Of a DNA stretch of 64,000 bases, positions 42,413-43,543 are shown one piece after another. Source of the stretch: Candidatus Woesebacteria bacterium (GTDB taxonomy: Bacteria > Patescibacteriota > Microgenomatia > UBA8517). The stretch's first letter is position 1. Every line of letters begins with the position of its first letter. The translations under genes and the position numbers were made by a program. Under the pieces are notes generated by a model. That model did no database searches. It was not told where the DNA came from and worked only from the letters and a program-made list of their open reading frames with translations. The stretch is taken from the NCBI GenBank assembly GCA_020060565.1, contig JAGVAE010000002.1, positions 371,270 to 435,269 of the forward strand, written 5' to 3'.

Positions 42413-43465
42413 TTACAAAAAATAGTTCTTTATTGCGAATTGCTGTTGTTCTAGAAAAAGTTTCTTCAAGTAAAATATATTGTTTTGTTCGTAGAAAAGG
42501 ATTAATGCTTTCTTAAATTCAATTTCGTCAACACTTCTATATGAAAGTGGAAAATAGTTGTTGGATAATAATACTGCATTACTTACCATTCTTGCAGTCC
42601 TTTTATTACCATCCATAAATGGTTGCAGATATGAGATCATGGCTAGAAAAATTAAGGCCTTTTCTGGTACATTATCTAATTTATTTGTTGATGCTATTAA
42701 TTTAGTTAAAGCTTCCTCTATCTGTATTTTATTATCTAGAGGTGTATATTTTGTACCTGTAATTCCAACCGCCGATTGACGTATATTCGATTTTATTCCA
42801 AGATCTTTTGTGAGTTCAGAATGGATAGATCGTATATCTAAAATATTAATGTCTTTGAAACTCTCTTTTTTTTCAAGAATGATATCAAAGGCACTCTTGT
42901 GATTAAGAATCATTACAGCCTCGTCTCTGTCATGCCCTTTAGCCTGCTTTTTATTTTTTATTAATTCTTCTGTTTCGAGAAGGGAATAGGTATTACCCTC
43001 TATTTGAGAAGATTTCCAAGAAAGTTCAATGGTAAACCTTTCAAGTTCACGTTTTAAAATTGTTTTGTCTAAAGTGTTAAATTGCGACTTCAGCTTTTCT
43101 CTTCCCTGCTCAAAAAGATTACGTTCTTCATTCGAAAACAATCCTTTCAAATTATTTATTAAATCAAAATTATAATTTTGATATTTGACGTTTCTAGAAT
43201 CTGTTGTTTTCGAAAAGTATTGATCTACATTAACGGGAATCAACATCTCACGATCTTTTTTGAGGATATATCTTACATATTTTCCTCCGCCCACCAACTC
43301 TATCCAACCAAGCTTAATAAGATGGTTCAAGTCTCGTATATTGGTAATACGGGAGATATCTGTATTTGCCAGAGATTTTTCAAGCTCAGCTCTGGAGGAA
43401 TTGGGGTTGAGCATTAAATAATTAAGTAAATTCACTTGCCTGGCATTTAGCTGCGTATCATTCAT
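42413..43465 (-). CDS. Fic/Doc-family protein with N-terminal wHTH and non-canonical active-site motif QPFMDGNKRTAR; tool start TTG 43495
   Basis: wHTH-like at residues 15-75; SSQIEGN inhibitory-helix motif; Fic motif with Gln (CAA) at the His position, confirmed on the reverse complement; ATG at Met11 preferred over the TTG embedded in the palindrome. Confidence 0.75.
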   Translation of the reverse strand: MNDTQLNARQVNLLNYLMLNPNSSRAELEKSLANTDISRITNIRDLNHLIKLGWIELVGGGKYVRYILKKDREMLIPVNVDQYFSKTTDSRNVKYQNYNFDLINNLKGLFSNEERNLFEQGREKLKSQFNTLDKTILKRELERFTIELSWKSSQIEGNTYSLLETEELIKNKKQAKGHDRDEAVMILNHKSAFDIILEKKESFKDINILDIRSIHSELTKDLGIKSNIRQSAVGITGTKYTPLDNKIQIEEALTKLIASTNKLDNVPEKALIFLAMISYLQPFMDGNKRTARMVSNAVLLSNNYFPLSYRSVDEIEFKKALILFYEQNNIFYLKKLFLEQQQFAIKNYFL

Positions 43466-43493
43466 ATGCCTACAGCGTATCATAATGATACGC
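43453..43493. promoter_or_regulatory. candidate operator: 19-bp perfect palindrome GCGTATCAT-A-ATGATACGC (43475..43493) plus a third GCGTATCAT half-site (43453..43461) 22 bp away
   Basis: Read directly from the sequence; lies upstream of and overlapping the Fic translation start. Confidence 0.4.
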
Positions 43494-43543
43494 AAGAAAG
43501 CAAGTAATTATTGTGATTTGTTTCTGTTGAGCTAAAATGAGTA

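Follow-up and report, generated by a model that had tools for sequence, protein, structure and literature searches.

A widespread Fic-domain family with glutamine at the catalytic histidine position, encoded in Candidatus Woesebacteria by an apparently self-repressed single-gene cassette

The motif His of Fic-domain proteins is the general base for AMPylation, and one gene in a stretch of Candidatus Woesebacteria DNA encodes a Fic-like protein in which this residue is replaced by Gln. The stretch (64,000 nucleotides of contig JAGVAE010000002.1 in assembly GCA_020060565.1, positions 371,270 to 435,269 of the forward strand; hereafter the window) holds a glycosylation cluster in which the gene lies on the minus strand. 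An earlier note on this DNA, made from the letters alone, had suggested an inserted Fic gene, possibly inactive or mechanistically altered, whose product might act as a DNA-binding regulator or a pseudo-enzyme. The locus raises the question of whether the Gln is an accident of this gene or a property of its family, what controls the gene and how it came to stand in the cluster, and what a Fic domain of this kind may do. Our overall account, to which we assign a probability of about 0.65, is that the gene is a self-repressed cassette encoding a fusion of a winged helix-turn-helix (wHTH) domain and a class II Fic domain with Gln, here called Fic(Gln), and that it belongs to a phylum-spanning clade with the motif Q[P/A]FxD[G/V]NKRTxR.

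We followed the residue through four sets of homologues, namely the 120 closest database proteins, 1.84 billion cluster representatives, the GTDB species genomes, and 83-85 genomic loci. The 120 closest proteins are 57-100% identical to the window protein and come mostly from Patescibacteria; the motif starts with QPF in 113 of them, with QAF in 6 and with LLF in 1, His occurs in none, and the segment SSQIEGN is kept in 114. The exhaustive search of the cluster representatives gave 227 clusters at E<1e-30. For the top 150 representatives (50%-identity clusters), 111 of the 113 motifs detected by a regular expression start with Gln, and pairwise alignment of 15 sequences that the expression had missed or flagged placed Gln at this position in 12, with more distant relatives of about 410-470 aa among these 12 reading Q[P/A]FxD[V/L/I]NKR. 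Altogether, Gln is found in nearly all of ~230 motif-bearing homologues, down to about 31% identity. A patterned scan of the GTDB species genomes matched at least 600 stretches, at least 595 of which encode a relative; the 80 loci kept, among the matches listed, belong to Patescibacteria, Bacteroidota, Gamma- and Alphaproteobacteria, Melainabacteria, Spirochaetota, and Firmicutes. At the codon level, Gln is encoded in 82 of 83 genomic loci (CAA in 48, CAG in 34), the remaining locus having CAC (His). Plasmid-borne relatives, including those on conjugative Roseobacter plasmids, likewise carry Gln; one plasmid homologue has 44% identity.

From this distribution it is virtually certain that Gln at the catalytic-His position is a family trait. 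The use of both CAA and CAG points to selection on the amino acid and excludes a sequencing error. Thus the comparison of homologues for His or Gln that the earlier note had proposed comes out in favor of Gln, which occurs in 119 of the 120 closest proteins. Nor is the Gln a peculiarity of this genome; the residue is fixed across a very large clade that was described in silico in 2015 (PMC4454073). The sole member found with His is encoded in a Bacteroidales metagenome-assembled genome (locus L062, JBFWIG010000143.1, open reading frame (ORF) 2212-3249); it has the CAC codon, reads SYIHPFIDGNKRTSR and keeps SSQIEGN intact. A natural reversion is one explanation for it, a variant arising from the assembly another.

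The remainder of the Fic active site is conserved as well. Among 47 divergent members with 31-71% identity to the query, all of which match the Pfam Fic domain (PF02661), positions E156, G157, N158, R229, V233, Y240, and P242 are invariant or nearly so (E156, G157, R229, and P242 invariant; V233 and Y240 nearly so), and Y279, Q281, F283, D285, N287, K288, R289, and R292 are invariant or more than 90% conserved. The Asp that binds Mg, the anion nest formed by GN(K)R, the two Arg residues, and the gatekeeper Glu are all still in place in the Fic(Gln) domain, as is the flap for target docking. As far as sequence can tell, this pattern in the pocket, gatekeeper, and flap is unlike that of a decaying active site, and because these elements are kept we consider the domain very probably under functional selection rather than decayed. 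A purely ‘dead’ Fic(Gln) domain appears unlikely.

The minus-strand ORF that the earlier note had placed at 42413-43495 is real according to the ORF listing of the window, and its product matches PF02661 at 52.7 bits (cut-off 24, E 7.8e-14). The coding sequence almost certainly starts at the ATG at 43463-43465 (42413..43465, minus strand; 350 aa plus stop, MNDTQ...) and not at the TTG at 43495, because most homologues are 350 aa long, covering 97% of the 360-aa reading, and the extra codons of that reading fall within the operator palindrome described below. Upstream TTG and ATG starts are ruled out by the promoter geometry. The Fic core motif QPFMDGNKRTAR (aa 281-292, nt 42590..42625, minus strand) fits HPFx(D/E)GN(G/K)RxxR at all positions but the His, which is Gln281 (CAA at 42623-42625); the second Arg of the motif, R292, is present. 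In the phmmer alignment with human FICD, ‘ylQpfmdgnkrtar’ stands opposite ‘yiHpfidgngrtsr’, so that Gln281 falls on His363, and ‘ssqiEgn’ stands opposite ‘tvaiEgn’ with its Glu234. Both the replacement of the catalytic His and the inhibitory motif SSQIEGN (aa 152-158, nt 42992-43012, minus strand; Glu156), read from the translation in the earlier note, are borne out by this alignment. The target-docking beta-hairpin, or flap, R-QSAVGITGTKYTP (aa 229-242, nt 42740..42781, minus strand) was located by its conserved residues, by beta-bridges in the AlphaFold model, and by alignment to the FICD flap.

The AlphaFold model of the protein, built with 33 homologues, has a mean predicted local distance difference test (pLDDT) score of 83 and a predicted template modelling score (pTM) of 0.84. 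It consists of a three-helix, two-strand winged helix at aa 8-68 (helices 8-19, 25-31, and 39-51 and a beta-wing), followed by a helical Fic domain. The N-terminal wHTH that had been read from the sequence is thereby upheld, and its segment (43250..43465, minus strand) is further delimited by the first 80 positions of the family profile, which match the wHTH repressors BlaI (2.9e-4) and AspA, by matches of individual relatives to Pfam HTH_DeoR, HTH_11, Penicillinase_R, and MarR, and by the co-variation with the operator that is presented below. The putative recognition helix comprises aa 39-51 (nt 43313-43351, minus strand; S38-R39-I40-T41...R44-D45-L46-N47).

We assign the protein to the class II Fic proteins and not to Doc, because FICD is the best match in both sequence and fold and because the flap and the gatekeeper helix are present. 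Class II is defined by an intramolecular N-terminal inhibitory helix (Engel et al. 2012 classification, summarised in PMC9755527), and SSQIEGN supplies such an (S/T)xxxE(G/N) helix N-terminal to the core in the same chain. Among solved structures, the closest relatives are human FICD and its C. elegans homologue. Foldseek against the PDB returned FICD, BT_2513, SoFic, and CdFic at probability 1.0 with a TM-score of about 0.5-0.7 (E values of 7.8e-8 for FICD and 8.8e-6 for CccR, PDB 7XUX), and the family profile matches FICD at 3.6e-22 and CccR at 8.2e-11. The Doc-like appearance of GNKR noted earlier is therefore correct in that the Lys is common with Doc but does not extend to Doc membership, the TIGR01550 (DOC_P1) score being 17.1 bits, below the cut-off of 38.65. 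An NCBIfam search of the window protein gave nothing above cut-offs, and exact-sequence look-ups of this protein and of the neighboring methyltransferase returned no record.

The start region of the gene carries three copies of one 9-bp half-site. Two of them form a perfect 9-1-9 palindrome, GCGTATCAT-T-ATGATACGC, at 43475..43493, which we propose as a dimer operator; it follows a -35-like box and overlaps a -10-like box. The third copy, ATGATACGC at 43453..43461 (minus strand), is a direct repeat of the proximal arm, located 22 bp downstream, and covers codons 2-4 (AAT GAT ACG). These are the only three copies of the exact half-site 9-mer in the 64-kb window. The putative promoter (43474..43503, minus strand) combines the -35-like TTGCTT at 43498-43503 with the extended -10-like TG-A-TACGCT at 43474-43482, at a spacer of 18 nt. 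In the consensus of homologous promoters given below, the proximal arm, TG-n-TACGCT, follows the -35 box at 17-18 nt and itself fits an extended -10 element. We infer this promoter, and with it an mRNA that is probably leaderless or nearly so, the latter because of the position of the -10 element and because no Shine-Dalgarno sequence is found at the Fic promoter.

The same architecture recurs in homologues. From 25 distinct homologous promoters we derived the consensus TTGAC-N3-GCGTATCAT-T-ATGATACGC-T-N8-ATGAATGATACGCAA, with a sharp onset of conservation at TTGAC. An inverted repeat together with a third copy of the proximal arm is present in 48 of 84 homologue upstream regions, compared with 13 of 599 control regions upstream of neighboring genes. 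In most loci the third site is offset by 22 bp, and in a Bacteroidales-type subgroup by 31-32 bp, which corresponds to about two or three helical turns.

The half-site changes together with the putative recognition helix. Proteins with SRITxIRDLN have the half-site TGATACG, those with SK(A/P)TLARDL have TGAGACG, and those with (T/S)(K/R)MT..RDL have TGTTAC, while SDRTLKR or NERTLKR goes with TTGTCCCGAT, SPATLKR with TTGAGCCGAT, and SYATLKR with TGAGC. A change of Ile/Val40 to Met is paired with a change of TGATAC to TGTTAC in three separate sub-lineages, and the nearest Fic-domain relatives of each Met40 sub-lineage retain Ile/Val and TGATAC. The N-terminal codons also track the half-site, since proteins whose half-site is TGAGACG start with MNET and not with MNDT. 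We considered whether the repeated TGATAC(G/A)(C/A)T might be a mere extended -10 box. This does not suffice by itself, since in lineages whose half-site is a different one (TGAGACG, TGTTAC, TTGTCCCGAT, and TTGAGCCGAT among them) the inverted and third copies persist and the recognition helix changes along with the half-site.

A metagenome-wide scan for the exact palindrome found 51 loci. In 33 of these, an intact homologue starts exactly 9 nt downstream, and 7 others hold frameshifted or internally deleted remnants of the gene in which the operator is kept. The remaining 11 loci are unrelated hairpins without the third site, and no other gene was found with both the palindrome and the third site. 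On this comparative basis, we conclude that the wHTH would recognize its own promoter and that self-repression would be its only detectable regulatory task; autorepression by the protein's own wHTH is in all likelihood what the operator serves. The DNA-binding regulator with an upstream palindrome that had been suggested for the locus is thus retained in a more specific form, as the comparative data point to this palindrome as the gene's own operator. In the proposed mechanism, a wHTH dimer would bind the 9-1-9 palindrome overlapping the -10 element, a further subunit would bind the third half-site two helical turns downstream and over the start codon, and both binding events together would repress the gene's own, probably leaderless, transcript. 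The DNA-binding step of this scheme is drawn from the comparative co-variation.

Some operators accompany genes that are no longer intact. The decayed copies (metagenomic contigs L094/L113, L096, L108, L111, L135, and L126) are frameshifted, cut after about 16-30 codons, or reduced by internal deletion to their N- and C-terminal stubs, and they retain the full palindrome and the third half-site. It appears that the Gln-Fic gene is often lost while its operator persists. Distant plasmid relatives (385-429 aa, DVNKR) show other upstream repeat architectures. Two of these are on a Sagittula plasmid (L089, NZ_CP021915.1, upstream of 3965) and on a Sulfitobacter plasmid (L088, upstream of 2464), and their repeats differ, one having four direct TTGCG(C/T)CTA copies and the other CGTTTCA/TGAAACG inverted repeats in addition to direct repeats; one of the two adjoins a SIR2 gene.

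We next consider how the gene came to lie in its present place. Its neighbors in the window encode PMT_2 GT-C enzymes, a DUF6056 protein, a class I methyltransferase, a Polysacc_synt flippase, and GT2 and GT4 enzymes. As had been stated before, the gene and the pair at 5045..8429 are the only long minus-strand ORFs in the window (3 in all). The reported 0-bp abutment is correct as to spacing, but the neighbor ending at 42412 is not an upstream gene: the DUF6056 gene is convergent with the Fic gene and their 3' ends meet with 0 bp between them, while the Fic promoter is divergent from the methyltransferase gene. Three metagenomic contigs (L141, L142, and L143), whose DUF6056 proteins are 84%, 79%, and 76% identical to that of the window, have the same gene order without a Fic gene. 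In these contigs 3 nt separate the stop codon of DUF6056 from the ATG of the methyltransferase gene, compared with an interval of 1131 bp in the window. Because three syntenic relatives carry the cluster without it, we hold with high confidence that the Fic gene was inserted into the glycosylation cluster, as had been suspected. Relative to these contigs, the inserted segment would be 42413..43529, about 1.12 kb that comprise the Fic gene with its promoter and operator only.

The junctions carry a direct repeat, AGTTAAAATAA on the left (42402..42412, plus strand) and AGCTAAAATGA on the right (43530-43540), which is imperfect with 9 of 11 positions identical. The right copy resembles the ancestral DUF6056 3' end (GCTAAAATAG-GTA-ATG in L143), and the repeat is compatible with either a target duplication or microhomology. 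Over the Fic gene no anomaly of GC content or skew was seen in the window, and no intrinsic terminator was found at the gene. Among close homologues, nucleotide similarity starts abruptly at the -35 box and ends at the stop codon, and therefore the conserved unit is the gene with its own promoter only. The 3' flanks of 24 homologues have no common sequence past the stop, and no attC-like or terminator element was found there.

The earlier note had also recorded weak 9-bp inverted repeats flanking the gene. The right copy is at 43504-43512 and not at 43505-43513, and these repeats are not evidence of insertion. We rejected the 9-mer AATAATTAC as a terminal repeat, since it is a common word and its left copy straddles the insertion junction. 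It has 9 copies in the window (at positions including 11899, 35387, 42408, 43504, 47775, 48385, 51219, 60888, and 62492) against 2.8 expected, and no shuffle reached 9. Its over-representation probably reflects the composition or codon bias of an AT-rich genome.

The genomic contexts of homologues are varied and include Rho and glycosyltransferase genes, SET and NUDIX genes, and DUF1295. A homologue with 82% identity (L086, Logan SRR32573209 contig, 1-10400) lies with AbiEi/AbiEii, a Doc-like pair, a large serine recombinase, and TraC/TraG-like ATPases; these surroundings resemble a mobile or defence island. No conserved partner gene was found among 85 loci; the largest neighbor cluster, present in 7 of the 85, is a common class I methyltransferase at variable distance. 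The phage collection gave 5 partial Fic-domain matches only, which rules out a phage-borne family.

Several further observations concern the surroundings of these genes. In L086, a NUDIX gene lies directly downstream of the homologue, and the region also holds a small Doc-type Fic gene with an 82-aa upstream ORF. In 4 of the 85 loci (L008, L023, L026, and L053), another Fic-like gene, distinct from the Gln-Fic gene and having a gatekeeper-type motif (NAIENSTL...), is present within 1 kb. A tRNA-Leu(CAA) gene (L104, 2317-2400) lies about 30 nt past the stop of a Gln-Fic homologue, so that at least one insertion adjoins a tRNA gene. The three syntenic contigs have a minus-strand GATase_7/Asn_synthase gene of ~620 aa in the interval between the flippase and GT2 genes (L141 9397-11259, L142 9411-11273, and L143 6081-7970). 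In the window no such asparagine-synthase-like gene lies between the flippase and GT2 genes, which overlap at about 45567-45570.

The nearest description in the literature is that of the His-to-Gln ‘D2’ clade (Khater & Mohanty 2015, Sci Rep 5:10804; PMC4454073), an in silico set of 45 sequences, bacterial only and ‘usually single-domain’, that was placed with Doc and has the motif Qx[F/Y]x[D/E][G/V]NKR; its authors argued that the clade was selected rather than dead. The window's QPFMDGNKR fits this motif, as does the QPFxD(V/L/I)NKR of the distant relatives of ~385-470 aa, including plasmid-borne ones. The family analyzed here is far larger, with at least 595 matches in the GTDB species genomes, and carries a wHTH at the N terminus as well as a gatekeeper helix, a flap, and the final Arg, whereas the Doc clade was reported to be without the last Arg (PMC4454073). 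In contrast to the Doc grouping of D2, its nearest sequence and fold match is the class II protein FICD; the two groups were compared by motif and description.

The relation to Doc of phage P1, the EF-Tu kinase of the Phd/Doc pair, is limited to the Lys of GNKR, which at K288 is more than 90% conserved in the present family. Lys at this position is a Doc signature linked to inverted ATP binding, and Castro-Roa et al. 2013 reportedly linked it to phosphotransfer as well. Doc is small, is without the flap and gatekeeper helix, has His66, and needs the adjacent Phd antitoxin. No adjacent Phd-type antitoxin was found for the Fic gene, there being no small upstream ORF in the window and no conserved neighbor in the 85 loci. 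FICD/HYPE is closer: its gatekeeper TVAIEGN falls on SSQIEGN, and both the flap and the core motif can be matched position for position. It differs in having His363, GNGR, and a tetratricopeptide repeat (TPR) domain and transmembrane N-terminus instead of the wHTH, and in being a bifunctional AMPylase/de-AMPylase.

Fusions of HTH and Fic domains were noted in 2009 (PMC2686095), and some of them resemble the present protein in regulation. CccR of Yersinia pseudotuberculosis is a Fic-HTH autorepressor with palindromes near the -35 and -10 boxes (PMC9755527). It resembles the proposed cassette product in joining a class II Fic to an HTH and in repressing its own promoter, and its Fic part is detectably related. 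However, CccR has the canonical His192, AMPylates FtsZ, carries a C-terminal HTH, uses half-sites that are 26 bp apart, and is an effector secreted by the type VI secretion system. In CbFic2 of Coxiella, Fic activity is controlled by DNA binding via the HTH (PMC10628234), and SoFic is reported to be a stand-alone class II Fic with an HTH that serves as a single-gene anti-phage defence effector (PMC12249575). Both differ from the window protein in the catalytic His and in the C-terminal position of the HTH. The PADLOC SoFic model aligns window residues 132-304 to profile positions 42-217 of 361, which is the common Fic core only, and Pfam SoFic-like_C is matched by 1 of 47 family members. Membership in the SoFic defence system was ruled out, as neither a full-length match nor a SoFic-like C-terminal domain was found.

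Four other explanations of the locus or of its product have to be weighed. The Gln could in principle stem from faulty sequencing or assembly, or from a recent mutation inactivating a gene in decay, as CAA is one third-position change from CAT or CAC and decayed copies of the family exist elsewhere. However, the window ORF is intact and 100% identical to a deposited protein (P0001), two Gln codons are in use across the family, and Gln prevails in the closest homologues, the representative motifs, and the genomic loci counted above, which leaves this explanation a negligible probability. Nor is it at all likely that the protein is dedicated to regulating or modifying the glycosylation genes around it, although it sits amid PMT_2, DUF6056, methyltransferase, flippase, GT2, and GT4 genes and its promoter is divergent from the methyltransferase gene. 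A functional link to the glycosylation locus is contradicted by the three syntenic relatives that keep the cluster without the gene and by the unrelated contexts of homologues, and the 64-kb window has no further operator copy.

The role of the Fic(Gln) domain itself is more evenly contested. By analogy with FICD, canonical His-dependent transfer is most likely not performed, because the general base/acid His that FICD needs for both activities is missing; His363 is required there for AMPylation and for Glu234-assisted de-AMPylation (PMC8373988). Since the regulator would control only itself and no conserved partner is found, the selective value should lie in the Fic(Gln) domain, which in our account would be a ligand- and target-engaging effector, working either by altered chemistry or by binding or trapping a protein target in a nucleotide-dependent manner. 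We put the retention of some catalytic activity at somewhat below an even chance. One possibility, which we hold tentatively, is that the domain is enzymatically active through a non-canonical chemistry and serves as a latent toxin or an effector of abortive infection or defence, which would be kept scarce by autorepression and checked by its intramolecular gatekeeper Glu, like SoFic or the CccR toxin; Gln with Glu156 would orient a nucleophile or water, and the Doc-like Lys would alter donor-nucleotide binding. The catalytic motif is nearly invariant bar the His, Gln is specifically kept there rather than arbitrary residues, and the gatekeeper Glu is invariant. The operator overlaps the -10 element and start codon, as expected for a product kept scarce, decay is frequent (7 remnants among 40 operator-linked loci), and mobile or defence-like contexts occur (AbiE, Doc, recombinase, and conjugation genes; SIR2 and conjugative plasmids). 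There is also generic PADLOC similarity to SoFic (6.8e-17) and PDC-S04, although these matches span the common Fic core and do not imply membership. SoFic is reported to defend via AMPylation-driven abortive infection (PMC12249575), and according to the argument of the 2015 survey, activity is not necessarily lost with the His-to-Gln change (PMC4454073). On the other hand, the His is essential for the AMPylation and de-AMPylation studied so far (PMC8373988; H192 of CccR), most contexts are not defence islands, very few relatives are phage-borne (the 5 partial matches), and a toxin and repressor in one polypeptide has no obvious addiction logic. A non-catalytic pseudoenzyme, which taken by itself we regard as rather unlikely, would either sense nucleotide and tune DNA binding of the wHTH or, as a natural substrate trap or reader, use the flap to bind a protein that may be nucleotidylylated. 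It would account for the fact that only the general base/acid is missing while the nucleotide-binding residues and flap are conserved; FICD H363A traps AMPylated BiP in a long-lived complex (PMC8373988), so that a His-less Fic can be a stable binder, and coupling of DNA binding to the Fic state is documented for CbFic2 (PMC10628234). Yet with its own promoter as the only detectable target of the wHTH and no conserved neighbor, a pure sensor would regulate only itself, and the near-invariant Mg-binding Asp285 and the invariant Glu156 exceed the usual needs of simple binding. Overall, an altered-chemistry enzyme of the latent toxin or defence type and a nucleotide-dependent binder or reader seem about equally likely. 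Tight repression, frequent decay, and occasional mobile or defence neighborhoods lean slightly toward a costly effector, and the essentiality of the His in every studied Fic leans away from an enzymatic one.

The preferred account, in its entirety, is that of a single-gene cassette, extending from the -35 box to the stop codon, that would have been acquired horizontally, would regulate itself, and would have landed between two genes of a Patescibacteria glycosylation cluster to which it is functionally unrelated. Several points weigh against it. The His of the Bacteroidales homologue indicates that this residue is at least tolerated in the family. A generic sigma-70 promoter scan did not call the proposed Fic promoter, and 36 of the 84 homologue promoters fail the strict criterion of an inverted repeat plus third site. 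The co-variation of helix and operator is partly phylogenetic, which the three independent switches mitigate, but these are few. The junction direct repeat is imperfect, and the insert is without a mobility gene. AlphaFold confidence is lowest (pLDDT about 42) at 42986-43015 (aa 151-160), which includes the gatekeeper helix and is the most conserved stretch of the family; the low value may reflect a mobile helix or a shallow alignment. Finally, a full-text literature search for QPFxDGNKR and variant motif strings returned nothing relevant, and broader literature searching yielded general papers on Fic proteins only.

Parts of this account are already known: the His-to-Gln clade has been described in silico (2015), and autorepression and DNA-controlled activity have been shown for the His-bearing CccR and CbFic2. 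In the literature searched we did not find reports of how large and phyletically broad the clade is, of the constancy of its wHTH, of the insertion as a minimal cassette, of the three-half-site operator over the -10 element and start codon, or of the co-variation of helix and operator. A more far-reaching view, which we consider unlikely on present evidence, is that the Gln-Fic clade forms a mechanistically distinct Fic class carried in a package that would be among the smallest self-contained mobile units known, a single gene with its operator built into the -10 element and first codons that would move between phyla without a mobility gene. Such a class might comprise a Glu156/Gln281 hydrolase or ‘eraser’, a transferase acting on a base-independent nucleophile, or a protein that naturally reads or traps nucleotidylylated targets.

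The motif His is what Fic enzymology is built on, and a clade present in hundreds of species has replaced just that residue while the rest of the pocket and the gatekeeper Glu stayed frozen. The Gln clade thus amounts to a natural experiment on the Fic active site without its base, and its interest would be higher if the Gln-Fic domain truly has a chemistry of its own. The comparative operator data provide a defined 40-bp DNA target together with candidate specificity-switch residues (Met for Ile/Val40, paired with T for A in the half-site). For genome annotation, the Fic gene would be an accessory insertion and not a member of the glycosylation pathway. For the Patescibacteria, it would add a widespread, mobile, and self-repressed module.

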